From: Archaeoglobus fulgidus DSM 4304
GTDB taxonomy: Archaea > Halobacteriota > Archaeoglobi > Archaeoglobales > Archaeoglobaceae
Length of the DNA stretch: 32,000 bases
Assembly (NCBI RefSeq): GCF_000008665.1
Contig: NC_000917.1
Coordinates: forward strand, 1,740,001-1,772,000
Reading direction: 5' to 3'
Below are positions 1,783 through 28,737 of this stretch, piece after piece. The position numbers and the translations under genes are program-made. The notes beneath the pieces were generated by a model, which saw only the letters and a program-made list of their open reading frames with translations, had not been told where the DNA came from and did no database searches. Positions within the stretch are counted from its first letter, which is position 1. Each line of letters starts with the position of its first letter.

Positions 1783-2352
1783 TTGCTGGTATTAGTTATG
1801 GCCACAGCCTCAGCCGACACCCTATGCAGTCAGCAGGAAGATGAGAGCTGGGGAAACCTGATGCTGCACGGCTTTCAGGTTGAAGCCTACAAGCCCGTTA
1901 GGGTTGGCGATAAGGTTTGCTACTCCTTCTATCTGAAGAACACAGGCAGCAGCGATGTAACGCTGGGGAAAAAGGGAGTCTACCTCCACACCAACGACGG
2001 CGATTTGAGCAGTAACTCAGGAGCTACCATCAGCCCGGGGAAGTCCATTTTTGTGAAAGACTGCTTTATAGCCTCATCATCTGGAGAGTGGACAACCTAT
2101 CCGGGCGTATGCATAATCACTGCCAAAGGAGAGTTCTGCCACAACTTCGAGACATCATGCACCTTTGACGTCTTCATCGAGTGCCCAGAAAACTGGAACT
2201 GCATGACTGCCGAAGATGCTTCTCAGGGCAACTATATTCGCTACTCTGACGAGCTTTGCGGTTACACCATCACCGGCTTCACAGCAATGAACAAGGTCCG
2301 ATGTACTGCTACAGAGAAGCTTCTGAATGCCCTGCAGGCACTCGGTGTGTAA
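1783..2352 (+). CDS. ORF fragment 1 of 3 of the disrupted protease gene (truncated signal peptide, N-terminal sandwich, first Cys module)
   Basis: TTG-initiated ORF from the track. DTLCSQQEDESWGNLMLHGFQVEAYKPVRVGDKV..TSCTFDVFIECPENWNCMTAEDASQGNYIRYSDELCGYTITGFTAMNK aligns with the first ~185 aa of 5815..9081. Its last ~17 codons (VRCTATEKLLNALQALGV) are out-of-frame read-through. Confidence 0.6.
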   Translation: MLVLVMATASADTLCSQQEDESWGNLMLHGFQVEAYKPVRVGDKVCYSFYLKNTGSSDVTLGKKGVYLHTNDGDLSSNSGATISPGKSIFVKDCFIASSSGEWTTYPGVCIITAKGEFCHNFETSCTFDVFIECPENWNCMTAEDASQGNYIRYSDELCGYTITGFTAMNKVRCTATEKLLNALQALGV

Positions 2353-3947
2353 CTCAGGGAGAAGCTGAGAAAAACGGGATGATTCCAACAGGGATTTTCT
2401 GTGATTACCAGAATGGGCAGGAGATGTACTGCTACTCCGAAGGAAAGCCTGATTTAGTCATAAGCGACGTCTGGGCTTACAACACCACTCCCGGAGTTTA
2501 CTCCGAGCTTAGAGCTCTCGTTTACAACCACGGGCATGGTTATGCAGGAAAGTTCAGCGTTGCCTTTTTCATTGATGGCAGCTACGTTGGAGAGGTTGAG
2601 GTTAACGGTCTTGGTGCCAACGAGAACACGGTTGCAAGGATCAGCTACCCCCATCCATGTGAGGGAGAGACAGACACCTTTGCTGCTCAGGTTGACTACC
2701 ACAATGAAGTGGATGAAGAAAATGAGAACGACAACTACCACGAAAGCCCCCGCATCTTCCAGTGCAGTGGGGGAGAGATGCCCAACTTAGAAGTTGTTGA
2801 GGCTTATATTGACTATCAGGACTTCTGCAGAGCCCTCAACTACAGAAACAGCTCCATTGTCGTTGTCGTTGCAAACACGGGAGAGCAGGCATCTCCTCAA
2901 ACGGGCGGATGGATTTACATTGACGGTAATTCGAGAGGAGGCTTTGACATCCCCTCACTCCAGCCGGGTGAAGAAACCACCATCTCGATGAACTTCCCGT
3001 ATATGTGTGAGGGGAGCAGCGACGAGATCAGGGTTGTGGTTGACAGCAGAAACTACGTGGTTGAGAGCAATGAGAACGACAATGAGTATACATTCATAAC
3101 AGACTGCATACCAATGCCCTCAGGAACTGCTGATCTGGTGGTGAGCTATTTAGAGACACATGTTGTTGAGGAACTTCTGGCTGGTGGGCTGAGCTACCCC
3201 CTGAAGTCGGAAATAAACTACACCGTAGAGAATCTCGGAGAGGATTACTCCTGCAACGCAGAAGTGGGGCTGTTTATAGATGGCGTTTTTCAGGGTCAGC
3301 AATACCTTCCACCACTGGCTCCGGGAGACTCAATCACGAGGACTTTTATTGCGAAATACGACTGGGAGAGGTGCAGCGGAATAAGTGACACGCTGACTTT
3401 GAAGGCTGACGTCAACAACGACGTGGCCGAGTCAAATGAGAACAACAACGAGAGGAGCGTTACGCTCTACTGCATTGAATATCCCCTGATTAAGCCTGAC
3501 CTCACGGTGGAAGACGTGTGGATTGAAGGAGAGGGGGCATCCAACTTGGACATAGTTTTCACGGTCAAAAACATCGGCTTGGCTGCAAGCAGAGCGACAA
3601 ATGCGTATGTTGGGGTGAACTACAACCCCGCAGGAAGCACTCCCATCCCTCCACTCAACGCTGGAGAGAGTGTTGAACTCAGAATTTCAGGATTCACCGC
3701 CCAGTGGCAGGAGAACACCATTGAGGTGTGTGCGGACAGCGGAAATCTTGTTGATGAGATTCCCAATGAGATGAACAACTGCCTGACCAAAACGATTACC
3801 ATCGAGGACGTTGGTTGCTATGATGGAGTGAGGAACAGAGATGAGGTCGGTGTGGATTGTGGCGGATATTACTGTGTTCCTGCGGCTTTGTTGAGGTTAA
3901 AGGGAGATTGCTCTATCAGGATGACGATGGCAGCTGGCTTCCAGTGA
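2256..3947 (+). CDS. ORF fragment 2 of 3 (second Cys module, four CARDB-type domains, Cys linker)
   Basis: From ~2298 it reads PMYCYREASECPAGTRCVTQGEAEKNGMIPTGIFCDYQNGQEMYCYSEGKPDLVISDVW... There are four sandwich units, each starting with x-[PA]-[DN]-L-x-V and ending in Asn/acid-rich motifs (ENENDNYHE, ESNENDNEY, ESNENNNER, IPNEMNNC), as in CARDB domains. The first ~14 and last ~21 codons are out of frame relative to the paralogue. Confidence 0.6.
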   Translation: MRLHHHRLHSNEQGPMYCYREASECPAGTRCVTQGEAEKNGMIPTGIFCDYQNGQEMYCYSEGKPDLVISDVWAYNTTPGVYSELRALVYNHGHGYAGKFSVAFFIDGSYVGEVEVNGLGANENTVARISYPHPCEGETDTFAAQVDYHNEVDEENENDNYHESPRIFQCSGGEMPNLEVVEAYIDYQDFCRALNYRNSSIVVVVANTGEQASPQTGGWIYIDGNSRGGFDIPSLQPGEETTISMNFPYMCEGSSDEIRVVVDSRNYVVESNENDNEYTFITDCIPMPSGTADLVVSYLETHVVEELLAGGLSYPLKSEINYTVENLGEDYSCNAEVGLFIDGVFQGQQYLPPLAPGDSITRTFIAKYDWERCSGISDTLTLKADVNNDVAESNENNNERSVTLYCIEYPLIKPDLTVEDVWIEGEGASNLDIVFTVKNIGLAASRATNAYVGVNYNPAGSTPIPPLNAGESVELRISGFTAQWQENTIEVCADSGNLVDEIPNEMNNCLTKTITIEDVGCYDGVRNRDEVGVDCGGYYCVPAALLRLKGDCSIRMTMAAGFQ

Positions 3948-4981
3948 AGCTGACGAAGATCAGAACTGAAGGAGACTTTAACTGGGGGCCATTTCTGACC
4001 GACAGCGATGGTTACTTCACCATTCCAATCCCAGACAGCCAAGCAGGCAAGAAATTCAGGATCAGGATTGAGCCATGGGATATAAACTACGCTGCAAGAA
4101 TTGCAAGGGATCTGGATCGGTGCAACGAGTACGTGTGGTTCCTTTCGGACGAGATTACTGTGCCAGATCACGGAAGGCTGGATCTGGGTGAGCTAAGGAT
4201 AGGTAAAGATGCCAACTACGACTTCACTGCCTACTGGCAGGAAAAGAGGCACACCTGCCTTTTCGGTCTCTGCGCCTGTGGGGGTTCGGTACATGTAATT
4301 CAGGGAGGGTCAGTTTATCTGAACATTGCCGACGCCCTGCTTGCAGCCAGAGCCTATGCGGACCTTCACAGGAGCGACGATGACGGTATAGGAAGAGTGG
4401 ACGTTCAGTATCCTGACAGCGACTGGAGCAACTACGACCAAACCTGGGATGAGATAACGCTTACAACGAATCACGGATTTTTGGATGGAGTTGCCATCCA
4501 CGAGTACGGGCACTTCCTCGAAGACCACATAAGCGAGGAAGACATATATGTTGGTAACACTTCCCACACCTTCTGCGACGACAAGGACGATACGGAATTT
4601 GCGTGGAGTGAAGGGTTTGCAGAATACTACGGGACTTTCATAGTGGCAATAAACGACCACCTCTCGCATCCGGACATAAGTTTCGGTACAATCGAGAATC
4701 CGGGTTGCAGCAAATTTGATGACGATATAGAAGCCACAGTTGCCGCAGTTCTCTGGGACATGGTTGACAACAGCAGCTTTCCAGACTACAATGCAAGCGA
4801 ATCATTCGATACGGTTGGAGGGCTCGACGATGTTATCTTCAAGATGTTCGACAGTGAGCTCGACCACTGGCACGATGCTCCTGACCTATGTGAAATGCAT
4901 GGCAATCTCGACCATCGGCTTGATTCAACTACGTTGAACAAAGTGGAGCGGATTTTTGAGCATTACAATGCGTGCAGGTGA
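3857..4981 (+). CDS. ORF fragment 3 of 3 (small beta-sandwich plus HExxH zinc-protease domain)
   Basis: From ~3881 it reads CGFVEVKGRLLYQDDDGSWLPVKLTKIRTEGDFNWGPFLTDSDGYFTIPIPDSQAGKKFRIRIEP.., then ..FLDGVAIHEYGHFLEDH.. (HEYGH at 4499..4513) and ..TEFAWSEGFAEYYG.. (Glu at 4610..4612). This gives HExxH plus a downstream Glu-containing helix, a gluzincin-like arrangement. Confidence 0.6.
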   Translation: MWRILLCSCGFVEVKGRLLYQDDDGSWLPVKLTKIRTEGDFNWGPFLTDSDGYFTIPIPDSQAGKKFRIRIEPWDINYAARIARDLDRCNEYVWFLSDEITVPDHGRLDLGELRIGKDANYDFTAYWQEKRHTCLFGLCACGGSVHVIQGGSVYLNIADALLAARAYADLHRSDDDGIGRVDVQYPDSDWSNYDQTWDEITLTTNHGFLDGVAIHEYGHFLEDHISEEDIYVGNTSHTFCDDKDDTEFAWSEGFAEYYGTFIVAINDHLSHPDISFGTIENPGCSKFDDDIEATVAAVLWDMVDNSSFPDYNASESFDTVGGLDDVIFKMFDSELDHWHDAPDLCEMHGNLDHRLDSTTLNKVERIFEHYNACR

Positions 4982-5756: not shown

Positions 5757-5814
5757 TAATTCATCCCTTAAAAACTGTTGGAACGGCCCGACTGTTCTGA
5801 CCATCGGTGGTTTG

Positions 5815-8800
5815 ATGAAAAACTTGCTCAAAGCCTTGGTCATTTGCACCCTCATTTTCGCCTCAGTCGCCTCAGCCTCTGCTTCGCCCGTCTGCCAGCA
5901 GGAGAGAGAGGAGATCTGGAACTCTCTGCAGCTTTACGGCTTTTTGGTGGAGTCGAATCAGCCTGTCAAGGTCGGTGACACAGTTACCTACAAGTTCAAC
6001 CTCAGAAACACGGGAAAGGAGCCTGTAACCATCGGATTTGGTGGGGCTTACCTCAAGAGTAGCGATGGACAAATTTACAGATTTCACGCAAAAGAGGTGA
6101 TTGAGCCATCAGGAGCATTGACCGTCAGCTCAACGTTTGTTGCTGAGAACACCGGCCAGCTTTCCGTATCTCCCGGAGCGTGCATTTCTACATCTAAGGG
6201 CGACATCTGCCACGATTTCAGCAGCTGCACCTTCGACGTCTTCTTCGAGTGCCCTGCGGGGTGGAGCTGCATGGCTGCGGAGGAGGCTTCCGGGAGCTAC
6301 GTCAGGTATTCGGAAGAGGTTTGCGGATACAGCGTTTCCGGCTTGGCGGCAATGGTAAAGACGCCGAAGTACTGCTTCAGAGAGGTTCAGAGCTGTCCGG
6401 AAGGATGTGAGTGCCTGACCAAATCTGAGGCGGAGAAGCTGAAAATGGACCCGTGCGGAAAAATATTCTGCGGATACGAGAATGGACAGGAAAAATACTG
6501 CTACCGGCGTGGAGCTCCTGACTTTGAGGTTTTAAGCGTGGAAGTGGAGAGAAGCGAGGACTGCGAAAGGCTGGACTACAGGGAGAGCCCTGTCACATTT
6601 AAGGTGAGGAATTCCGGGGATGGGGCGAGCCCTACAGCGGAAGGGGAGCTTTACATTGACGGAACACTCCTTCAGACCTTCAGCATTCCACCCCTCCAGC
6701 CGGGAGAGGAAGAGCTGTTCAGCTTCAATTTTCAGGTCCTTTGTAGCAGAGAAAAGGACACAATCCGAGTTGTTGCGGACTCACAGAATACAGTTTTAGA
6801 ATCCACAGAGAGCAACAACGAGGTGGAAGTTGAGTTATCCTGCCTTCCGTCTTCTGAGGGGGCGGATTTAACTGTCGTGAGGGTATGGAACGAGTCCTAC
6901 AACAACGAGCTGAGAGTTTACTACGAAATCAAAAACACGGGATATGGATATGCCTGCAGCTCTCAGGCGGGGCTTTTCGTTGATGGGGAGCTATTTGCAG
7001 TGGACGATGTCGGGCCTTTAAGTCCGAAAGAATCGAGAGAGGAGGCTTTCTACAGGAGATACAGCATTGAAAGTTGCACGGGCAACGTTTTCGAGGTCGT
7101 GGCGGATGTTGATGACAGCGTTTTAGAGCTTGATGAGGGTAACAACGCCTTCAGTGTTGTCTGGCTGTGCAGAGATTTTGTTCAGCAAAAGCCCGACCTT
7201 CAGGTGGGGGCGGTCTGGACTGAGGGGACGGGTAATTCAGACCTGACACTCCACATCCCGCTGCAGAACTTCGGCAAGGCGGAAAGCCCCCAGACCGAGG
7301 TGGTTGTTTATGAGAACGGGCAGCAGGTTGCAACTCTTCAGGTGTCATCCATTTCTCCGGGCGGGATAGAGACATACAGGCTTCTCCACTGGTCACCGCA
7401 GAGCAGTTCAACAACCATAACCGTTTGCATTGATGTCCAAAACGACGTGGATGAGGAAAGGGAGGACAACAACTGTGCCAGCAGGATACTTACCTTCACC
7501 TCCACCTGCAGCGATGGTGTGCAGAACGGGGATGAGGAAGGGATTGATTGCGGAGGGAGCTGTCTGCCATGCAACAGGTGCGACATGGCATCGCTGCCAT
7601 CTCGATTCGACTGGAGAGACTACACGGGACTTTCCGCTGTCAGGGATCAGGGGAGCTGCGGGTCTTGCTGGGCACATTCTGCCGTCGCAGCTCTGGAATC
7701 TGCACTCATTGTCGAATCGGGTGCAAGCTCAAGCATAGACCTCTCCGAGCAGCACCTTCTGAGCTGCGAGCAGGACTGTGAGGTGGGAATTGGTGACTGG
7801 TGCTGGGCGAGCAGCGGAGATTGTGATGGTGGCTGGCCCCACAAGGCTCTCAACTTCATCATAAACAACGGCGTTCCGGATGAGTCATGCTTTCCCTACA
7901 CCGCAACCAACGGGAACTGCGGGAGTAAGTGCGGTGACTGGGAGGACAGGACAGAGGGGGCAGTTTACAGGGGGAAGGTCAGCAGTAACGTTGAAGCCCT
8001 GAAAAGAGCCCTGATATGCCACGGACCCCTCTCGGTGGCTTCGGAGAACTGGGAGCACGCATTGCTTCTCGTAGGTTACGATGACCTGAGCACCATCTGC
8101 ACGCAGAAATACGGGAAATCAGGATGCTGGATACTCAAGAACAGCTGGGGAGTTTTCAGCGGTTTTTCGCATGACGTATGGCACGAGTATGGCTACGCCT
8201 ACATCCCATATTCGGGCTTTAAATACAGCGACATCAAAAACGGGGCCTACTACGTTATTCCATCGGACTACACTCTTCATGCCGACTTCGAGATGATGGA
8301 CGGCCTCGCTGCTGGGGATCTGGACGGAGACGGTATGGCTGAGATCGTGCACGCTGACAGAGGAGACCTGCTGCAGATTTTCAACCTTGGAGGGTTGCAG
8401 AGCAGTGAGCAGATGGATTTTGAAGAGGGAGACAGAATAGCCACTGGAGACGTGGATGGGGACGGAAGGATGGATGTCATACACGCCGACAGAGGGGATG
8501 AAGTTAGCATCCACTTCCAACCACCCGTTGGGGTTGTCAGCAGCTTTTACCTCGACTTCGAGGAGGGCGATGACATCGCAGCCGGAGACGTCAACGGAGA
8601 TGGCGTTGATGAGATTGTGCATGCAGACAGAGGGGATTTGATAAGTGTTCTCGGTGCCAGCGGCAATCAGGTTGCGAGCTTCCAGCTGAACTTCGAAGAG
8701 GGAGACAGAATCTGCGTTGGAGACGTTAATGGTGACGGAAAAGATGAGATAGTGCATGGAGACAGAGGTGACTGGGTGAGGGTTTACGACATGTATGGGA

Positions 8801-9081
8801 CAAAGCTGAGTGAGTTCCAGCTTGACTTCGAGCAGGGAGATGCGCTGCAATGCGGTGATTTGAATGGCGACGGCGTTGATGAGATTGTGCATGGAGACAG
8901 GGACGACTGGGTGAGGGTTTACAACATGCACGGTGCATTGCTGGGTGAGATGCGCTTTAACTTTGAATTCGGGGATGGGTTTGCTGTGGCTGATTTCAAC
9001 GGAGATGGTAAGGATGATATCATTCACGGAGACAGGGGAGATTCCTTCCACGTTGTAAAGGGAGAGAGGTGGTTTGAATGA
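5815..9081 (+). CDS. Secreted modular cysteine protease. Domain order: signal peptide, N-terminal sandwich, 2 Cys-rich modules, 3 CARDB-type domains, Cys linker, papain-like (C1) peptidase domain, 6 FG-GAP/VCBS-type repeats
   Basis: ATG 5815 sits behind a GGTGG SD (the track start TTG 5812 is one codon upstream). MKNLLKALVICTLIFASVASASA is the signal peptide. Numbering from 5812: sandwich aa 26-145; Cys modules aa 147-231; CARDB-type units aa 236-345, 350-453 and 460-562 (..ESTESNNEVEV, ..LDEGNNAFSV, ..EEREDNNCAS); linker CSDGVQNGDEEGIDCGGSCLPC. The C1 domain reads LPSRFDWRD..RDQGSCGSCWAHSAV (Gln 7648..7650, Cys 7666..7668)..NWEHALLLVGYD (His 8056..8058)..WILKNSWG (Asn 8140..8142). Six ~45-aa Ca-binding-type repeats follow. 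Confidence 0.9.
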   Translation: MKNLLKALVICTLIFASVASASASPVCQQEREEIWNSLQLYGFLVESNQPVKVGDTVTYKFNLRNTGKEPVTIGFGGAYLKSSDGQIYRFHAKEVIEPSGALTVSSTFVAENTGQLSVSPGACISTSKGDICHDFSSCTFDVFFECPAGWSCMAAEEASGSYVRYSEEVCGYSVSGLAAMVKTPKYCFREVQSCPEGCECLTKSEAEKLKMDPCGKIFCGYENGQEKYCYRRGAPDFEVLSVEVERSEDCERLDYRESPVTFKVRNSGDGASPTAEGELYIDGTLLQTFSIPPLQPGEEELFSFNFQVLCSREKDTIRVVADSQNTVLESTESNNEVEVELSCLPSSEGADLTVVRVWNESYNNELRVYYEIKNTGYGYACSSQAGLFVDGELFAVDDVGPLSPKESREEAFYRRYSIESCTGNVFEVVADVDDSVLELDEGNNAFSVVWLCRDFVQQKPDLQVGAVWTEGTGNSDLTLHIPLQNFGKAESPQTEVVVYENGQQVATLQVSSISPGGIETYRLLHWSPQSSSTTITVCIDVQNDVDEEREDNNCASRILTFTSTCSDGVQNGDEEGIDCGGSCLPCNRCDMASLPSRFDWRDYTGLSAVRDQGSCGSCWAHSAVAALESALIVESGASSSIDLSEQHLLSCEQDCEVGIGDWCWASSGDCDGGWPHKALNFIINNGVPDESCFPYTATNGNCGSKCGDWEDRTEGAVYRGKVSSNVEALKRALICHGPLSVASENWEHALLLVGYDDLSTICTQKYGKSGCWILKNSWGVFSGFSHDVWHEYGYAYIPYSGFKYSDIKNGAYYVIPSDYTLHADFEMMDGLAAGDLDGDGMAEIVHADRGDLLQIFNLGGLQSSEQMDFEEGDRIATGDVDGDGRMDVIHADRGDEVSIHFQPPVGVVSSFYLDFEEGDDIAAGDVNGDGVDEIVHADRGDLISVLGASGNQVASFQLNFEEGDRICVGDVNGDGKDEIVHGDRGDWVRVYDMYGTKLSEFQLDFEQGDALQCGDLNGDGVDEIVHGDRDDWVRVYNMHGALLGEMRFNFEFGDGFAVADFNGDGKDDIIHGDRGDSFHVVKGERWFE
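8287..9078 (+). repeat. Six tandem ~45-codon FG-GAP/VCBS-type repeats (coding)
   Basis: [FL]-x-F-E-x-G-D-x-x-x-x-G-D-[VLF]-[DN]-G-D-G-x-[DA]-[ED]-I-[VI]-H-[AG]-D-R-[GD]-D recurs with the G-D start at aa 835, 879, 925, 970, 1015 and 1060 (spacing 44-46 aa, about 135 nt). This periodicity also creates the long antisense shadow ORF 8119..9051. Confidence 0.85.
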
Positions 9082-9716
9082 GGAGGGTTTTGCTCTGCTT
9101 TCTCACTCTAATCCTGCTGCTCCCAGCAGCCTCAGCCCTCAGAAATCCCTCTGCAGTCTACTGTGAGGCCATGGGCTATAATTACGTAATCTTCTCCTCC
9201 CCCTACGGTGACGTTGGCAAATGCGTCCTGCCCAACGGTGAAGCTGTGAATGCGTGGGACTTCTACAGGGGAGTGGTTGCGCTGGAATACAGCTACTGTG
9301 CAAAGCAGGGCTACGAGGCGAAGCATGTGGAGAGAGAGGACTGCAAGAGCTGCCTTGTTTGTGTTTTGCCAGACGGAAGGGAGGTGGAGGTTGCTGAGCT
9401 CATGGGCCTGAGCTTTGAGGAGACAACGTGTGGGGATGGAGTTTGCGGGATTCCTGAAAATTACTCATCCTGCCCTCAGGATTGCAGTTCCGGGGAGGAG
9501 GATGGATACTGTGATGCAGTAAAGGATGGTATTTGCGACCCTGACTGCACGAAGGGTGAAGATGCTGACTGTGCTGAGAATTTAGAGGGGGGTGCAACAA
9601 CAGTTACAGCCACCACAATTACTCCAAGCGAGGTGAAGAGAACTCCGGGGTTTGAGGCGCTGGAAGTGCTTGCAGCTTTAGCCTTGGTTCTTGCAGTGAG
9701 CAGAAGAAGGATTTAA
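9078..9716 (+). CDS. Secreted DUF333-like / Cys-rich protein with PGF-CTERM anchor signal, small partner of cassette 2
   Basis: ATG 9078 overlaps the upstream TGA (ATGA, 9078..9081), with a GAGGTGG SD 5 nt upstream. MRRVLLCFLTLILLLPAASA is the signal peptide. NPSAVYCEAMGYNYV..GKCVLPNGEAVNAWDFYRG fits the DUF333 pattern and is followed by a second, degenerate half (YCAKQGYEAK..CLVCVLPDGREVEVAELMG). Next come a Cys-rich segment (CGDGVCGIPENYSSCPQDCSS..YCDAVKDGICDPDCTKGEDADC) and a Thr-rich linker. The C-terminal TPGFEALEVLAALALVLAVSRRRI is a PGF motif (9645..9653) plus hydrophobic helix plus basic tail. Confidence 0.85.
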   Translation: MRRVLLCFLTLILLLPAASALRNPSAVYCEAMGYNYVIFSSPYGDVGKCVLPNGEAVNAWDFYRGVVALEYSYCAKQGYEAKHVEREDCKSCLVCVLPDGREVEVAELMGLSFEETTCGDGVCGIPENYSSCPQDCSSGEEDGYCDAVKDGICDPDCTKGEDADCAENLEGGATTVTATTITPSEVKRTPGFEALEVLAALALVLAVSRRRI

Positions 9717-9868: not shown

Positions 9869-12319
9869 ATGCGAATTGGTGTTCTTGTAGCGGGCCTTTT
9901 TGGAGTCCTGCTTCTTGCTGCAATGGTGCAGGCCCAGTGCCCTGAGGGCTGCGCCTGCCTTGACAAGGCGACAGCTGAAAAGTACGGGCTGAGCAAGCTC
10001 TGCTCGGATAAGCCATGCGGTGAAACAACCAAGGGGGAGCCCAAATACTGCTTCCAGACCTACACCTGTCCCGATAACTGCTATTGCCTGACCGAAGAGG
10101 AGGCGAAGGCTGAGGGATTGACCACGTGCGGAGACCAGATGATGGTTTGCGGGGAAAAGGAAGGGAAGCTCCTTTACTGCTTCTCCAAACCTGTCTGTCC
10201 TGAGGGATGCGTTTGTTTAACCAAGGAGGATGCGGAGAAGAAGGGATACACGGAGCTTTGCAGCGATGATGTTTGCGACTACACCATCTCACAAACCCCG
10301 ACAGCAGTGGTAAAGGTTCCGATGTACTGCTGGAAGGCTGTTCCTACAACAACCACCACTACCACCACAACCACTCCAGCAACCTGCCCTGACAACTGCA
10401 ACTGCCTGACAGAGGAGGAGGCGAAGGAAAAGTTTACCTGCCCAACTCTTTGTGGCGATGCGATTTGCGGTTACGATGAGAAAACTCCGAAGTACTGCTT
10501 CAGGGACAACTGCACTGCAAATGTTTCCTGCCCCTTCGGATGCGAGTGCCTGACGGATGAGGAGGCAAAAGAAAAGGGCTACACAGAGCCCTGCGGAGAT
10601 TATGAGTGCGGTCTCATCGGGGATAATGTGGTAAAGCACTGCTATAAGAAGCCCTACGAGTGCCCTGAGGGCTGCAAGTGCCTCACTGACGAGGAGGTAA
10701 GGAAATATCTGGAGGAGGGGTATGTAGTTGAAAAGTGCGGCGAGGAAAAGTGCAGCGAAAAGGGAATGTGCTACAAAATCTCCTCCCCCACCTGCCCTGC
10801 TGGCTGCGAATGCCTGAGCGATGAGGAGGTGAAGAAGTACGAGTCCTCTGGTATAAAGCTCGAGCGCTGCACTTCCCAGCCATGCGGTGATGGCAAGTAC
10901 TGCTACAGGAAGGTTGAGGAAATCTGCCCAGCTGGATGTGAGTGCCTCTCCAAGGAGGAGGGGTATGCAAAGGGCATGGAGTTCTGTCAGGACTCTGCAG
11001 GAAACCTGATAAGGTGTGGTGTAATCGATGCTGAGCATGGAGTTTACAAGTACTGCTTCAGAGAGGCCGAAAAGTGTCACTTTGACAGAGCAAAATCTGT
11101 CTGCACGGGCTACTGCGAGAGTGGAGAGTGCGAGTTCTCGGCAGATTACCAGCTTTGCGTCGAAGATTGCAAGATGAAGTACGAGGAGTGCCTGAAGGGC
11201 GACGTTCCTGAGGAGGAGTGCAAGAAAGTCTATGAAGAGTGCTGGAGTGGCTGCAAACCATCCTGTGAGTGTAAGCCCATAACCTGCCCTGCAGGCTGCG
11301 AATGTCTCAACGAGGAGACGGTTAAGAAGTACCAGTCTGCAGGCTACACAGTTGAGCGCTGTGCTGCCGAAACCTGCCTTGCTGGAAACTACTGCTACAG
11401 AGTCACGCCTCAAAAGTGCCACTTTGACTACGAGAAGGAGCAGTGCGTTGGCGGTTGCGACGTCGGGCAGTGCAATCTAAACACCATTGTAAGAGACCCG
11501 AAGACGGGCAAGGTGGTTTACGGAGAGTGCGCCTGCAAGCCCGTGAACATCTGCCCAGCAGGATGCGAGTGTATGCCGAAAGAAAAGGCAGAGGAGGTAT
11601 TCAGCAACCCACAAGCATGCAATCCAAATCCGTGTGCCGTTGAGAAGGTGAAAGACGAGAGAACAGGAGAGGAATGGGAGGTTTACTCCTACTGCTTCAG
11701 GGAAGGTGAGCAGGCCTGCCACTACGACAGGGAGAGCGGAAAGTGTGTTGGAGGATGCGAGAGGGGAGAGTGCACACTGATGAGAGACTCCTACGGAAAT
11801 CCCTTCTGCAGCTGTCTTACCAAGATAACCCAGACAGTCCTCGAAACCAGCGTTGTTGAAAGAGCTTTACCACCCGAAGCTTCCCCGCTGACCTGCATTC
11901 CAGTCAAGCTCTACGTGAAACCAGCTTCGGGAGTTACGGGGATGATAATAACTGAAAACTACCCACAACAGTTCAGATTCGCATCACCATCCATCGCACC
12001 ATCCTCATACGGAAATGGAACGGCGAAGTGGCTGCTTATGGACAAGAACGGGCTGAAAGAGCAGGAGATTGAGTATAAGCTTTGCCTGCCAAGAAATGCG
12101 GCTGGAGAGTACTACTTCAACGGCATCTGGGAGACTGACACCAATGCGGGAACCATTGTGGGGGATACCAGCATAAAAGTCATGCCATCCAGGACGAACT
12201 GGCCGCCGTGTCCTGTTACCGACAGCATGCTGCTCAACTACATCACCCAGTGGTCTGAGGGCAAGCTCTCCGACCTTGAGCTTCTGCAGGTTGTTGAAGT
12301 GTGGGATAAGGGGTGCTGA
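9869..12319 (+). CDS. Secreted cysteine-rich repeat protein (816 aa): 10 CPxGCxC modules, 3 CHxD modules, poly-Thr linker, C-terminal beta-sandwich-like domain and tandem LLxxIxxW helices
   Basis: MRIGVLVAGLFGVLLLAAMVQA is the signal peptide, and the mature protein starts QCPEGCACL... CPxxCxC modules start at aa 24, 67, 110, 173, 221, 265, 309, 353, 473 and 562; CH[FY]D modules start at aa 403, 517 and 617. By hand count there are 90 Cys. A run of ten Thr lies at 10346..10375. The C-terminal ~140 aa (..GMIITENYPQQFRFASPS..GTAKWLL..EIEYKL..GEYYFNGIW..GDTSIKV) resembles the product of 12322..12810. The protein ends ..VTDSMLLNYITQWSEGKLSDLELLQVVEVWDKGC. Confidence 0.9.
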   Translation: MRIGVLVAGLFGVLLLAAMVQAQCPEGCACLDKATAEKYGLSKLCSDKPCGETTKGEPKYCFQTYTCPDNCYCLTEEEAKAEGLTTCGDQMMVCGEKEGKLLYCFSKPVCPEGCVCLTKEDAEKKGYTELCSDDVCDYTISQTPTAVVKVPMYCWKAVPTTTTTTTTTTPATCPDNCNCLTEEEAKEKFTCPTLCGDAICGYDEKTPKYCFRDNCTANVSCPFGCECLTDEEAKEKGYTEPCGDYECGLIGDNVVKHCYKKPYECPEGCKCLTDEEVRKYLEEGYVVEKCGEEKCSEKGMCYKISSPTCPAGCECLSDEEVKKYESSGIKLERCTSQPCGDGKYCYRKVEEICPAGCECLSKEEGYAKGMEFCQDSAGNLIRCGVIDAEHGVYKYCFREAEKCHFDRAKSVCTGYCESGECEFSADYQLCVEDCKMKYEECLKGDVPEEECKKVYEECWSGCKPSCECKPITCPAGCECLNEETVKKYQSAGYTVERCAAETCLAGNYCYRVTPQKCHFDYEKEQCVGGCDVGQCNLNTIVRDPKTGKVVYGECACKPVNICPAGCECMPKEKAEEVFSNPQACNPNPCAVEKVKDERTGEEWEVYSYCFREGEQACHYDRESGKCVGGCERGECTLMRDSYGNPFCSCLTKITQTVLETSVVERALPPEASPLTCIPVKLYVKPASGVTGMIITENYPQQFRFASPSIAPSSYGNGTAKWLLMDKNGLKEQEIEYKLCLPRNAAGEYYFNGIWETDTNAGTIVGDTSIKVMPSRTNWPPCPVTDSMLLNYITQWSEGKLSDLELLQVVEVWDKGC
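9938..11815 (+). repeat. Array of Cys-rich coding modules (10 x ~43-aa CPxGCxC type, 3 x CHxD type)
   Basis: Each module opens with recurrent DNA of the type TGCCC[TA]G[AC]NGG[CA]TG[CT]GA[GA]TG[CT]CT (for example at 9938, 10661, 10793, 10925, 11285, 11552). The divergent intervening sequence shows old, diverged duplications rather than recent ones. Confidence 0.85.
10346..10375 (+). repeat. Poly-threonine linker (10 consecutive Thr codons, mixed ACA/ACC/ACT)
   Basis: ACA ACA ACC ACC ACT ACC ACC ACA ACC ACT lies between module 3 and module 4. It is a likely flexible, possibly O-glycosylated spacer (inference). Confidence 0.8.
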
Positions 12320-19795: not shown

Positions 19796-20785
19796 ATGAA
19801 TGTTGGATATCTCTGCACTTACACTCCAAAAGAGCTTATCGACGCTGCGGGCTTCACACCAATAAGGATTTTTGCTGGTGACATGCAAATCAGCCTCGCC
19901 ACAGCACATATTCAGAGTTACGCCTGCTCTCAGGCAAGGGGGAGCCTTGAGAGGGCTCTAAGAGGAGAGCTAGATGTTCAGGCGGTTGTTTTCACGAGGT
20001 GCTGCGACACTCTCATGCGATTAGCCGACATCTGGGAGAGAAACACAGATATGAGAGTTTACAACATCGAATTCCCCACGAGGGTTGAGGAGAGAAGCAA
20101 GGATTACTACTTCAACGAGCTCAAGGACTTCGTCAAAGTTCTCGAAGAGTGGGGCGGTGGTGTTACACTCGAGAGTTTGAGGGAGAGTCTAAAACTTTAT
20201 CACGAGCTTGAAGAGAAGCTTAAAAGGCTTTTCAGCCTCAAGCCTGACTACGAAGCAGCAAAGAGAGTTCAGGAGATGAATGTAAGAGAAGCGATAAAGT
20301 TCGTGGATGAGAGGCTGCGAAAAGCTGAAAGCGAAGGTGGAAAACCGAGGGTTCTGATTACCGGAAGCGTGTGTCCCTTTGTGGAAGTTTACACTCTGTT
20401 CGAGGAGGCGGGTTTTGCCCTTAAAGACGACATCTGCACGGGAACGAGGTTCTTCACCTTCAACACACCGCCGAGAGAAATAGGGTCGGTTGATGAGGGG
20501 TTGAGGTTTCTGGTGGACAAGTACTTTGAAAAAGCCCCCTGCCCGACGAAGCACTTCCCAAATGACGATAGATTCAAATATATCCTTGAAATGGCCAAGG
20601 ATTGCGACGGGGTTGTGTTCCTGCTGCTCAAGTTCTGCGAGCCGCACTTCTACGATTACCCGCAGCTTAAAGAGAGGCTTGAAGAGATGGGCAAGAAAGT
20701 TCTCCTGCTCGAACTTGAATTTCCCATCGCTTCAATCGAGCAGTTGAGGACGAGGATTGAGGCTTTCTACGAGGTGATAGCATGA
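19796..20785 (+). CDS. 2-hydroxyacyl-CoA dehydratase / benzoyl-CoA reductase family D-component subunit (HgdB/BcrC-like)
   Basis: MNVGYLCTYTPKELIDAAGFTPIRIF.. and ..ITGSVCPF..DDICTGTRFF..LLLKFCEPHFYDYPQLK.. fit the HGD-D family pattern, including conserved Cys residues. It is the first gene of a three-gene operon. Confidence 0.8.
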   Translation: MNVGYLCTYTPKELIDAAGFTPIRIFAGDMQISLATAHIQSYACSQARGSLERALRGELDVQAVVFTRCCDTLMRLADIWERNTDMRVYNIEFPTRVEERSKDYYFNELKDFVKVLEEWGGGVTLESLRESLKLYHELEEKLKRLFSLKPDYEAAKRVQEMNVREAIKFVDERLRKAESEGGKPRVLITGSVCPFVEVYTLFEEAGFALKDDICTGTRFFTFNTPPREIGSVDEGLRFLVDKYFEKAPCPTKHFPNDDRFKYILEMAKDCDGVVFLLLKFCEPHFYDYPQLKERLEEMGKKVLLLELEFPIASIEQLRTRIEAFYEVIA

Positions 20786-21957
20786 CTCTGAAGAAGCTGA
20801 GAGCCAACGACAGAATGAAGCAGATCATGGCCGGCTACTACATGATGGGAAACCAGGCTGAGGTTAAAGGGTGGATAACCAGCGGAGCTCCAGTGGAGCT
20901 GCTCTACGCGATGGACATTTATCCAGTTTACCCCGAAAACCACGGTGCTCTGATTGGCGCGGCAAAGCAGGGGCCATACTTCAGCGACTTCGCAGAAAGG
21001 AAGGGGTTTTCGAGAGACCTCTGCTCCTACGCCCGCTGCGACATAGGGTGTGTTTTTGCAGGAACCAGCCCCATCGGAGGGCTGCCAGAGCCGACTTTCC
21101 TCTTCGCCTGCAACAACATCTGCAATACAGTTGTGAAGTGGTACGAGGTGCTGAGCAGGATATTCAAGGTGCCGCTTTTCGTTCTTGACACTCCCTTCGT
21201 GAGGAAGGAGCTCAAGGAAAGCTATGTCAAGTACGTACACGACCAGCTTTACGAGTTTGTTGACTTTCTTGAGAAAACCACAGGAAGAGAGTTGAGCGAC
21301 TCGAAGCTCAGGGATACAGTAATCAAATCGATTCAGGGCGTGAAGGCCTATGCCGAAGTGCTCGGAATGGCCAGACACAAGCCCTCACCGCTGACATGCT
21401 TCGATGCTTTCATAAACATGGCTCCCATAGTCTGTTTAAGGGGAACTGATTACCCAGTGCAGTTCTACGCCGAAATGAAGGAAGAGCTTGAGGAGAGGGT
21501 TAAGAGGGGGGAGGGAGCAATTGAGAACGAGGAAATAAGGCTCCTCTGGGACAACATTCCTGTGTGGTACAGGCTGAAGTGGTTTTCGGAGTTTTTCGCG
21601 GAAAGAAATGCTTGCCTCGTAGCGGACACATACACAAACGCCTGGACGGGATTCATTTCCATCGATAAGAGCGACATCTTCTGGAGCATGGCAGAGACCT
21701 ACACCTTCATCTACCTCAATATAGGACTTGAGCACATGGCCGAGGCCATCAACAGGCTCATAGACTACTATGATGTCGATGGCGCTGTTATACACTCAAA
21801 CAGGAGCTGCAAGCCGTACTCATTCGGCCAGTACGAGCTGCAGAAGATGATAGAGGTTCCATCGGTGATTATAGAGGCTGATATGGTGGACTCAAGAACC
21901 TTCAGCGAGGCTCAGGTTGAGACAAGGCTTGAGGCCTTTCTCGAAATGCTCAGGTGA
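20782..21957 (+). CDS. 2-hydroxyacyl-CoA dehydratase family D-component subunit (HgdA-like)
   Basis: ..GWITSGAPVELLYAMDIYPVYPENHGALIGA..DLCSYARCDIG..FACNNICNTVVKWYE..HSNRSCKPYSFGQ.. fits the HGD-D family pattern. ATG 20782 overlaps the upstream stop (ATGA). Confidence 0.8.
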   Translation: MTLKKLRANDRMKQIMAGYYMMGNQAEVKGWITSGAPVELLYAMDIYPVYPENHGALIGAAKQGPYFSDFAERKGFSRDLCSYARCDIGCVFAGTSPIGGLPEPTFLFACNNICNTVVKWYEVLSRIFKVPLFVLDTPFVRKELKESYVKYVHDQLYEFVDFLEKTTGRELSDSKLRDTVIKSIQGVKAYAEVLGMARHKPSPLTCFDAFINMAPIVCLRGTDYPVQFYAEMKEELEERVKRGEGAIENEEIRLLWDNIPVWYRLKWFSEFFAERNACLVADTYTNAWTGFISIDKSDIFWSMAETYTFIYLNIGLEHMAEAINRLIDYYDVDGAVIHSNRSCKPYSFGQYELQKMIEVPSVIIEADMVDSRTFSEAQVETRLEAFLEMLR

Positions 21958-21961
21958 ATCC

Positions 21962-22717
21962 ATGATAGCGGCAGGCATCGATATCGGGTCTTTAACTGCA
22001 AAATGCGCCCTGATGAGGGACGGAAAGCTGATAGCCTACAAGGTCATAAAGGTCTCCCCCAATCTGGAGGAAACGGCAGAGAGGGTTTTTCAGGAAACGC
22101 TTAAGGCTGCAGGAATAGGGAGGGAGGAGGTGGAAAGGATTGTCGCAACGGGCTACGGGAGAAACAAGGTCGGATTTGCGGACAAGAAGGTGACGGAGAT
22201 AAGCTGCCACGCAAGGGGGGCGATTTACTTCATTCCAACAGCGAGAACTGTTGTGGACATTGGAGGGCAGGACAGCAAGGTGATTGCCATCGAGAACGGA
22301 AAGGTTGCCGAGTTCGTGATGAACGACAAGTGCGCTGCTGGAACGGGAAGATTCCTTGAAGTCATGGCCGCAGCGCTGAATCTAAAAGTGGAGGAGCTTG
22401 GGGACGTGGCTGAAAGAGCTACCAAAGCCACGAAAATCTCCTCAACATGCACGGTGTTTGCCGAGTCGGAGGTTATCAGCCATCTCGCCTCAGGGGAAAA
22501 GGTTGAGGACATAGTTGCTGGGATACACGAGGCGATAGCGTCGAGAATTGCGGCAATGGCCAGGAGAGTTAAAATAGAGCCGGACATCGTTTTAACCGGA
22601 GGGGTTGCGAAAAACAAGGCGATGAAGAAGGCCCTCGAAAAGGAGTTCGGGATGGAGGTTAAAACACCTCCCGAGCCGCAGATTGTTGGTGCTGTGGGGG
22701 CTGCTCTGCTCGCCTAA
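21962..22717 (+). CDS. CoA-substrate-specific enzyme activase (HgdC/BcrAD/BadFG-type ATPase)
   Basis: MIAAGIDIGSLTAKCAL (ASKHA phosphate-1), ..VVDIGGQDSKVI.., and the two cluster-ligand contexts NDKCAAGTGRFLE and SSTCTVFAESEV, then ..LTGGVAKN... ATG 21962 sits behind AGGTGA. The track start 21917 lies inside the upstream gene. Confidence 0.88.
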   Translation: MIAAGIDIGSLTAKCALMRDGKLIAYKVIKVSPNLEETAERVFQETLKAAGIGREEVERIVATGYGRNKVGFADKKVTEISCHARGAIYFIPTARTVVDIGGQDSKVIAIENGKVAEFVMNDKCAAGTGRFLEVMAAALNLKVEELGDVAERATKATKISSTCTVFAESEVISHLASGEKVEDIVAGIHEAIASRIAAMARRVKIEPDIVLTGGVAKNKAMKKALEKEFGMEVKTPPEPQIVGAVGAALLA

Positions 22718-28161: not shown

Positions 28162-28737
28162 ATGAAAAGAGAGTACATCTACTGCGACACCTGCGGTGAG
28201 GAGACGCTTCACGAGCTCATAAGAGAGGAGAAGAACCTCTACAGATGCACGGAGTGCGGAACCTTCACCACCCACCTTCCAAGAAGGGAGGTGGGGGTTA
28301 GGGCGATAATCAGCAGTGGGCCGGAATCCGTAAAAGGGTCGATAAGAGCCTACGAGGGAGAGAAGCTCGAAAAGGGGGACGAGTACATTGTTGAAACTGA
28401 AAGAGGTCACAAAATAGGCGAAATCACTTCGCTTGAGCTGAAAAACGGCAAGAGGGCGGAGAGTGCAGCGGTTGGTGAGATAGAGACAGTGTGGCTGAGA
28501 GATGTCGGCGAGGTAGAGGTTAGAATGAGCCTCCACAAGAGGAGCGTTACCACCCCCTACAAGATGGTTGTTGACGGAGAGACCGAATTTGAGGTTGGAG
28601 AGGTTCTGCATGTTGATGGTAAGAGGTTCAGAATCCACAGAATCAAGCTCATTTCCGGCGGTGTTTTGAGGGGGGAGGGTAAAAGGGCAAGGGCAAGAGA
28701 AATAAGAAGGATATACGCGAAGTATGAGGGTAGATAA
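28162..28737 (+). CDS. Archaeal Zn-ribbon protein (COG1326-like)
   Basis: N-terminal CxxC..CxxC ribbon (YCDTCGEETLHELIREEKNLYRCTECG) followed by a ~150-aa beta-rich body and a basic tail (GKRARAREIRRIYAKYEGR). Confidence 0.7.
   Translation: MKREYIYCDTCGEETLHELIREEKNLYRCTECGTFTTHLPRREVGVRAIISSGPESVKGSIRAYEGEKLEKGDEYIVETERGHKIGEITSLELKNGKRAESAAVGEIETVWLRDVGEVEVRMSLHKRSVTTPYKMVVDGETEFEVGEVLHVDGKRFRIHRIKLISGGVLRGEGKRARAREIRRIYAKYEGR

Follow-up and report, generated by a model that had tools for sequence, protein, structure and literature searches.

Can a strictly anaerobic archaeon build exported proteins from small repeat domains held together by pairs of cysteines? The question is raised by a locus of Archaeoglobus fulgidus DSM 4304 contained in a 32,000-nucleotide (nt) stretch of its genome (NC_000917.1, positions 1,740,001 to 1,772,000 of the forward strand; hereafter, the window). 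This locus encodes a secreted, cysteine-rich protein of 816 amino acids (aa), which we call the stalk protein, carrying ten copies of one short cysteine module (module A) and three copies of another (module B). Eukaryotic extracellular proteins are known for small repeat modules stapled by disulfides; few such modules have been described from archaea, and the anoxic lineages involved here are, to our knowledge, thought to lack oxidative protein folding.

An earlier reading of this DNA, made from its letters and open reading frames (ORFs) alone and referred to here as the sequence-only reading, had singled out module A as unrecognised and had called exported cysteine-rich repeats unusual for what looked like an anaerobe. 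The remark is reasonable in the light of two genomic surveys. The thermophiles of low intracellular disulfide richness listed by Beeby et al. (2005) include methanogens, and a figure of that study sets sulfur-reducing prokaryotes apart in a class of their own and plots A. fulgidus as organism 18 (PMC1188242); most anaerobic Firmicutes and Deltaproteobacteria were reported by Daniels et al. (2010) to be without an even-cysteine bias in their exported proteins (PMC2823432). Our literature search for work linking obligate anaerobes with VKOR/DsbB found no paper covering all these terms.

Module A defines an undescribed family of extracellular domains

The stalk protein is made up of a signal peptide, ten A and three B modules, a Thr-rich linker, a C-terminal beta-sandwich and a helical hairpin, with the positions given in Table 1, and its mature form begins one residue ahead of the first cysteine (C1) of module A1. 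Counted by script, cysteines make up 90 of the 816 residues, 86 of them within aa 24-649 (nt 9938-11815). These counts match exactly those made by hand in the sequence-only reading, as do the ten CPxxCxC motifs that open the A modules (aa 24, 67, 110, 173, 221, 265, 309, 353, 473 and 562) and the three CH[FY]D motifs that open the B modules (aa 403, 517 and 617). Across 20,000 shuffles of the protein, the pattern CP..C.C occurred 0.065 times per sequence on average and never more than twice, against ten occurrences observed, and all ten copies are recovered, with E values from 1e-7 to 5e-17, by a hidden Markov model (HMM) made from them. Because DNA identity among the ten copies is 60-88%, and is limited to their first 45 nt, the array must be old.

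Searching an index of 5.8 billion proteins with the whole stalk protein retrieved 31 homologues, from Archaeoglobales, Methanoregula, Methanomicrobiaceae and Chloroflexi/Dehalococcoidales; every named one is a "hypothetical protein", and those in Archaeoglobales-type contigs are 34-90% identical. A profile of 143 modules, compared with 1.84 billion cluster representatives, matched 270 at E<=1e-3, 154 at E<=1e-10 and 46 at E<=1e-30, adding Methanothrix/Methanocrinis, Altiarchaeales and additional Dehalococcoidia to the sources known by name. All named sources of module A (Archaeoglobales, methanogens, Altiarchaeales and Dehalococcoidia) are strict anaerobes. In total, the module HMM has 756 matches in 177 proteins. 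Homologue searches yielded one fragment for the C-terminal 167 aa and two short proteins for a reordered module alignment, the index being evidently insensitive here.

The description of the module as unrecognised holds across the resources consulted. Neither Pfam-A nor NCBIfam contains a family matching the 816-aa protein (E<=0.1) or the isolated A module (E<=10), and the precomputed Pfam annotation of the homologues is empty across their module arrays. Among PDB sequences there is no match to the stalk protein or to the 143-module profile, and a Foldseek search with a module A model yields a best E value of 2.3. A literature search on cysteine-rich repeats in Archaeoglobus, Methanoregula or Dehalococcoidia found descriptions of neither module. 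The model in question, computed for A1 with AlphaFold2 (AF2) at a predicted local distance difference test (pLDDT) score of 93.4, has a strand at residues 7-9, a helix at 10-15 and a hairpin at 26-29/35-38. Module A is, we conclude, a real, rare and undescribed extracellular domain family of about 40 residues, predicted to fold autonomously; in the confidently predicted fold, a short strand and one helix precede a beta-hairpin.

Cysteine losses across the family point to three exclusive pairs

If the six cysteines act in pairs, loss of one member should be accompanied by loss of the other. We took a census of 740 complete modules from 177 proteins, out of the 756 matches, after rescuing truncated alignments and shifted cysteines by hand. 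The associations were evaluated with Fisher tests, which count modules as independent although many are orthologues or tandem duplicates, and which carry no phylogenetic correction. The second cysteine (C2) is lost in 16 of the 740 modules, and C4 is absent from all 16 (p = 2e-27); C2 is never lost alone, and C4 is lost alone in eight modules, leaving five cysteines (P0056, P0080, P0129 and a subfamily formed by two modules of P0131 and by P0106, P0117 and P0156). Joint loss of C1 and C6 is seen in five modules, with C1 missing alone in four and C6 alone in none (p = 7e-11). The remaining 13 cysteine combinations show no associated loss; C3 was never lost, and C5 was lost twice.

The coupling of C2 and C4 had been proposed in the sequence-only reading from three degenerate copies in the two genes upstream of the stalk gene. 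Those copies do lack both cysteines, and the proposal extends to the family at large. That reading had also named independent loss of the two cysteines as evidence against their coupling; such loss is found for C4 and never for C2. The coupling is, accordingly, strong but one-sided. The window itself contains two separate losses of the pair, one in module 1 of both upstream genes and another in module 2 of the frameshifted gene 1783-4981, whose counterpart in ORF 5812-9081 is intact.

Taken together, the six conserved cysteines behave statistically as those of the generic three-disulfide class, which is defined by three exclusive pairs (C2-C4 and C1-C6 being associated, with modules treated as independent). 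Since only C2/C4 and C1/C6 losses are associated, and since C3 and C5 are the best kept, the aligned copies imply that the cysteines of module A would pair as 1-6, 2-4 and 3-5, the sole pairing consistent with the census. Where C2 and C4 are lost, W or Y together with a Y usually stands in their place, a classic substitution in which an aromatic pair takes over from a buried disulfide.

A different rearrangement is seen in P0024, P0026 and P0079, where the last module before the TSP_3/papain region is without C1 and C6 (C6 being replaced by W) and has two new cysteines in its C5-C6 loop (SCPETIC, QCIPEIC and ECWWC), as though a new staple had taken the place of the old.

Joint losses would also arise if the repeats were low-complexity or recently amplified sequence without a folded unit, the same few variants having been inherited by many copies. 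The 16 modules lacking C2 and C4 do include nine that fall in one single-linkage cluster, and the tests treat all of them as independent. The 16 nevertheless resolve, at 50% identity, into seven sequence clusters of separate joint loss, set against zero losses of C2 only; moreover, the copies are old by the DNA identity given above, the family spans Archaea and Chloroflexi, and the isolated module is modelled at pLDDT 93. This explanation is effectively refuted, and we give it almost no credence.

Disulfides or a metal-thiolate cluster

Joint loss identifies partners; it leaves two chemistries to be weighed. One candidate, which we regard as unlikely, is a metal-thiolate cluster, such as a binuclear Zn2Cys6-type site, in which the six cysteines of module A would coordinate metal and form no disulfides. 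Each metal would have two terminal ligands, C2 and C4 for one and C1 and C6 for the other, with C3 and C5 as bridges, so that a Cys4 site would survive the loss of either terminal pair; the stalk would be metal-binding or metal-stabilised and would survive only in anoxic habitats. A cluster of this kind explains the census equally well, given that the jointly lost pairs are disjoint and that C3 and C5 are the cysteines best kept, and it would tolerate single losses of C4 or C1 as losses of one ligand in four. Strictly anaerobic hosts suit oxygen-sensitive thiolates, and the sequence-only reading had itself allowed for a shared metal site. The residues found in place of lost cysteines are, however, W, Y, L, V, S, G, R and K, with Asp once and His never; no Pfam metal-binding family matches the module; and both module B and the helical insert described below bear classic disulfide signatures. 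The CPxCG_zf protein encoded at 28162-28734 (Pfam E 5e-45) was considered as a relative and set aside, as it belongs, for all the likeness of its motif name, to a different, cytosolic zinc-finger family. A heme or cytochrome role was likewise rejected, since inspection of the translation by eye, with no pattern search made, shows no CxxCH motif.

Other evidence comes from cysteines outside the six of module A. Of the C-terminal sandwich of the stalk protein, C676 and C739 are both absent from the homologous sandwich of the partner protein encoded downstream, and P0009 is without both C781 (in WPPC) and C816 at the C terminus, between which a disulfide is presumed. Module A4 has a seventh cysteine, C191, which forms an additional pair with its presumed partner C215 in the following linker, and the equivalents of both (an extra FxCP..C and a linker cysteine) are present in P0002, P0003 and P0004. 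Some copies of module B likewise hold an extra, fourth pair (CxCD...C..CxC). Lone pairs gained and lost together indicate that disulfides form in this compartment. All 90 cysteines of the stalk protein can be assigned to pairs. Among 138 family members bearing a signal peptide, 89 have an even number of cysteines and 49 an odd number (p = 8e-4), the odd class being inflated by the active-site cysteine of papain domains and by truncated contigs. Disulfides are preferred over a metal cluster because isolated two-cysteine pairs, which are impossible as metal sites, covary in these proteins; judged from sequence covariation, the three pairs of module A are most likely disulfides, a reading that we hold to be probable.

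Overlapping N-glycosylation sequons, NCT and NVS, flank C215 (nt 10508-10528, aa 214-220).

Module B and its helical insert

Module B follows the pattern C1-x-[FY]-D-x5-C2-x-G-x-C3-x3-6-C4-(hairpin)-C5-x-C6 and was found in 110 copies in 37 proteins. The sequence-only reading had its motif and positions right and described it with four cysteines; the unit has six. The CxGxC element, Gly included, is present in all 110 copies, and the terminal CxC in 95 of the 110 aligned ends, most of the others stopping at C4 (pattern 111100, mainly in copies bearing an insert). The 110 copies contain no informative cysteine losses. In an AF2 model of aa 471-816, the B2 copy has strands at model residues 48-50/55-57 and 64-72/79-87 (pLDDT about 72-81, from a multiple sequence alignment of 28 rows), which predicts two hairpins, the C1-C2 one short and the C4-C5 one long. 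Profile comparison with hhalign treats modules A and B as unrelated (probability 1%).

We know of no growth-factor-type cystine knot (GFCK) outside animals. The order of CXGXC and CXC within six cysteines is the same in module B as in the GFCKs of TGF-beta, PDGF, glycoprotein hormone alpha and conotoxin sigmaS-GVIIIA. The published GFCK signature consists of CXGXC and CXC, which delimit an eight-residue ring in which the Gly makes space for the threading Cys I-IV bond (PMC12203953). In GFCKs, the ring is closed by the II-V and III-VI disulfides. The hairpins predicted in B2 would sit at the places of the GFCK "fingers". Module B differs from GFCKs in being far smaller (33-42 aa), in having no heel helix and in showing no evidence of a dimer, and it matches no Pfam family at E<=10, a profile search of the PDB giving only CCCH zinc-finger noise (E>=0.03). 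On the strength of its cysteine pattern, we report module B as matching the GFCK signature and not as a member of that class.

In B1, the second hairpin is replaced by a 33-residue insert whose six cysteines are spaced C-x3-C-x6-C-x9-C-x6-C-x3-C. This mirror-symmetric 3-6-9-6-3 spacing recurs in ten copies across nine proteins, with three of the copies in P0009, and the insert has a weak, non-significant match to Pfam Toxin_13 (E 0.25). Because the spacing is mirror-symmetric, we predict from the sequence that the insert folds as an alpha-hairpin with three disulfide rungs. It would resemble in this respect the alpha-hairpinins and related CX3C...CX3C hairpins, whose symmetric cysteines suit rungs between antiparallel helices, and differs from them in having three rungs, not two, and in sitting within another cysteine module.

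Comparison with known six-cysteine domains

Module A shares much with EGF-like domains: a size of about 40 aa, six conserved cysteines, beads-on-a-string arrays that vary in copy number, and a role, predicted for module A, in spacing out catalytic and adhesive domains. The two differ in connectivity, EGF-like domains pairing 1-3, 2-4 and 5-6 and module A, by the census, 1-6, 2-4 and 3-5; in the presence of a helix in module A; and in the anaerobic prokaryotes that host it. We rejected membership of the EGF-like class, as no Pfam EGF profile matches and the joint loss of C1 and C6 is incompatible with 1-3 and 5-6 pairs. By analogy, module A would most plausibly work as EGF-like spacer modules do.

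Kunitz/BPTI domains, kringles and alpha-defensins have three disulfides with 1-6, 2-4 and 3-5 pairing. The connectivity proposed for module A is, in the abstract, the same as theirs. Cysteine spacing, length and the order of secondary-structure elements are nevertheless different, and neither profile nor fold comparison yields a match.

The C-terminal region and a putatively anchored partner

The AF2 model of aa 471-816, with an overall pLDDT of 80.8, shows the last 155 aa as a beta-sandwich followed by two helices. The best Foldseek matches of the sandwich are a cohesin (2vo8, E 1.7e-5), an A. fulgidus cohesin (2xdh, 1e-3), CLIPPER (9ifr) and CARDB (3idu). The modelled fold appears similar to the cohesin, CARDB and DUF11-type sandwiches of prokaryotic surface proteins, with modest E values (1.7e-5 at best) and no Pfam match at threshold; the terminal helices differ from cohesin systems in containing no dockerin calcium-binding motif.

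Directly downstream lies a gene for a 165-aa protein with a signal peptide and a beta-sandwich of its own, which hhalign finds homologous to that of the stalk protein (95%, E 3e-8). Its C terminus scores below the PGF-CTERM cut-offs, with 18.3 bits against 18.8 for PF18204 and 18.7 against 24.5 for TIGR04126. The tail TPGFEAF...LLRRKH is visible, and is conserved in four of five orthologues, L005 having PFPG instead of PGF. The partner gene immediately follows the stalk gene at five loci, namely the window, L001 (Archaeoglobus sp. JdFR-22, with a 47% orthologue of the stalk protein), L002 (an Archaeoglobus sp. metagenome-assembled genome (MAG), syntenic with the window at 82-94% amino-acid identity), L003/L004 and L005. 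The two genes are separated by 3-12 nt in L001, L003/L004 and L005, and at the other two loci, the window and the L002 MAG, their ORFs overlap by a few nt. Since the gene pair is conserved at five loci and the two sandwiches are homologous, the partner is likely to be the surface tether of the stalk protein, as far as gene order and homology can indicate.

A proposed stapled stalk

A Pfam scan of 63 family members gives an idea of what module A is used for. The domains found with it are Big_1 (11), Invasin_D3 (9), Peptidase_C1 (8), TSP_3 (3), CarboxypepD_reg (3) and CARDB (2), as well as SLH, PGF-CTERM and beta-helix/NosD; all of them are extracellular. We propose that A units arranged head to tail, and mixed with module B, would form a long, rigid, stapled stalk resistant to heat and proteases, which would hold other domains off the cell: papain-type proteases, Ig-like domains or beta-helices in other family members, and a cohesin/CARDB-like sandwich here. 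No anchor is encoded in the 816-aa protein itself, and our best guess is that it would be held at the cell surface by its C-terminal sandwich and helical hairpin, through binding to the co-transcribed and putatively PGF-CTERM-anchored partner. A spacer role for the A/B array is suggested by the signal peptide, the extracellular partner domains and the deletion of two modules in one homologue. As a whole, an array of cysteine-paired A modules with module B acting as a stalk, held by an anchored partner, is the explanation that we find best and, on balance, probable.

The homologue with the deletion, P0001, is 90% identical to the stalk protein and is without exactly two modules (2b-4a) and the Thr linker, a difference of 106 aa that is in register between modules 2 and 4. 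It corresponds to window positions 10064-10427, and the two bordering modules are 85% identical across their first 46 nt; the deletion reflects either copy-number variation by unequal recombination or assembly collapse. P0001 also has a Tyr at C1 of module 5, giving it an odd number of cysteines. One family member matches Pfam Stig1, a plant stigma cysteine-rich family, very strongly (E 1e-46).

The same partner domains bear on another reading, in which module A would serve chiefly for binding or inhibition and only secondarily as a spacer, regulating co-encoded proteases or binding a surface, mineral or glycan ligand. Papain domains do accompany the module in 8 of the 63 scanned proteins, A modules occur in both genes upstream of the stalk gene, and the pairing proposed for module A is that of Kunitz domains. 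Most partner domains are not proteases, however, and no Pfam Kunitz or other inhibitor family matches; cysteine spacing and predicted secondary structure are unlike those of Kunitz domains, the C5-C6 loop varies from 5 to about 20 residues, as better befits a scaffold than a conserved binding site, and close relatives differ in copy number. We deem a primarily binding or inhibitory role improbable.

Several points weigh against a disulfide-stapled, tethered stalk. The window contains no gene for a disulfide-forming enzyme or oxidoreductase, and a thioredoxin encoded near P0006, considered as an exported oxidase, was discarded as cytosolic for its lack of a signal peptide. The confinement of all named hosts to strict anaerobes fits oxygen-sensitive thiolates too, and a disulfide-stabilised family might be expected in aerobes as well. 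The solitary losses of C4 (eight), C1 (four) and C5 (two) indicate that free thiols are tolerated and that the coupling is not absolute, and its significance comes from tests that take orthologous and tandemly duplicated modules as independent. The spacer and tethering roles, finally, are read entirely from architecture and synteny.

Upstream genes and other features of the window

The sequence-only reading had placed two A modules in each of two protease paralogues upstream of the stalk gene, and HMM searches locate both pairs of copies (Table 1). The designation of the genes stands for only one of them. ORF 5812-9081 encodes 1089 aa with a Peptidase_C1 domain (E 1.2e-37), three CARDB domains and FG-GAP repeats, whereas gene 1783-4981 has no papain match; the C-terminal 374 aa of the latter match no Pfam family and contain a HEYGH zincin-like motif at 4499-4513, in the place taken by the papain domain in its paralogue. 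Paralogy between the two genes is confined to their N-terminal halves. Two 1-nt deletions break gene 1783-4981 into three ORFs; the first lies between aagg and tcc near 2297, inside its first module, and the second between cct and gcg near 3880. Either the gene is a pseudogene or the deletions are sequencing errors.

Between the protease and stalk genes, an arrangement syntenic in L002, lies a gene at 9078-9716 for a DUF333 protein with 15 cysteines, a PGF-type anchor (TPGFEAL...RRRI) and a Cys/Asp-rich stretch, CGDGVCGIPENYSSCPQDCSSGEEDGYCDAVKDGICDPDCTKGEDADC. The linker at 10334-10384 contains a run of ten Thr and is presumably O-glycosylated. Elsewhere in the window, 19796-22717 encodes two HGD-D subunits and a BcrAD/BadFG-type activator ATPase, which is a 2-hydroxyacyl-CoA dehydratase or benzoyl-CoA reductase-like set; enzymes of this type are typical of strict anaerobes.

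Table 1. Coordinates of the stalk protein, its modules and associated features (window positions unless a locus is named)
Feature	Residues (aa)	Position (nt)	Strand	Evidence
Two A modules in frameshifted gene 1783-4981, both without C2/C4		2182..2435	+	HMM matches Wa189/134, Wb563/25
Two A modules in ORF 5812-9081, the first without C2/C4, the second intact	147-189; 195-231	6250..6504	+	HMM E 8e-11, 1.5e-12
Stalk protein gene, secreted, Cys-rich	816 aa	9869..12319	+	ORF and translation
Predicted signal peptide MRIGVLVAGLFGVLLLAAMVQA		9869..9934	+	By eye from the translation
Module A1	24-62	9938..10054	+	HMM E 1.7e-15; AF2 pLDDT 93.4
Module A2	67-105	10067..10183	+	HMM E 7e-13
Module A3, long C5-C6 loop	110-155	10196..10333	+	HMM E 4.6e-17
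Thr-rich linker KAVPTTTTTTTTTTPAT	156-172	10334..10384	+	Translation
Module A4, seventh Cys (C191)	173-211	10385..10501	+	HMM E 1.5e-15
Module A5	221-259	10529..10645	+	HMM E 1e-12
Module A6, short-loop subtype	265-302	10661..10774	+	HMM E 1.3e-7; C6 recovered by hand
Module A7	309-346	10793..10906	+	HMM E 1.9e-10
Module A8	353-397	10925..11059	+	HMM E 1.1e-12
Module B1, six-Cys helical insert in place of second hairpin	403-468	11075..11272	+	Regular expression and B HMM
Insert inside B1	430-462	11156..11254	+	Cys spacing, 33 residues
Module A9	473-510	11285..11398	+	HMM E 1.6e-7; AF2 strand, helix, hairpin
Module B2, canonical form, LNTIVRDPKTGKVVYGE hairpin	517-556	11417..11536	+	B HMM; AF2 strands
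Module A10	562-610	11552..11698	+	HMM E 8.5e-10
Module B3, short-hairpin form	617-649	11717..11815	+	B HMM
C-terminal beta-sandwich with C676/C739	about 662-771	11852..12181	+	AF2 pLDDT about 90
Two terminal helices, [ST]DxxLLxx[IV]xxW twice	785-814	12221..12319	+	AF2 model residues 315-326, 332-344
Partner gene: signal peptide, DUF11-like beta-sandwich, PGF-CTERM-like anchor	165 aa	12313..12810	+	Pfam DUF11 and PGF-CTERM just below cut-offs
Partner orthologues		L001 11942-12436; L002 4425-4934; L003 8079-8603; L005 8238-8753		

Implications

We rate modules A and B as new families of small, cysteine-stapled extracellular repeat domains, of a kind already known and in hosts that were not expected. 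A bolder view, that both are undescribed disulfide-rich families found only in strict anaerobes and that module B is a miniature growth-factor-type cystine knot, remains tentative and in our opinion rather doubtful as a whole. Were it true, it would run counter to the rule of thumb that obligate anaerobes build no disulfide-bonded exported proteins.

Two alignments from the analysis can seed new domain families, and a conserved surface module of two genes is now annotated. For module A, the natural "mutagenesis" recorded in 740 copies already predicts 1-6, 2-4 and 3-5 pairing. If the cysteines are metal-bound, the family would represent an extracellular thiolate-cluster repeat, which would be equally informative. 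If they are oxidised, the hosts would need an unrecognised way to make and keep extracytoplasmic disulfides in reducing, sulfidic habitats, and the oxidation of exported cysteines in methanogens, Archaeoglobi and Dehalococcoidia would call for an explanation; the module would then also offer a compact, hyperthermophile-derived scaffold for protein engineering.

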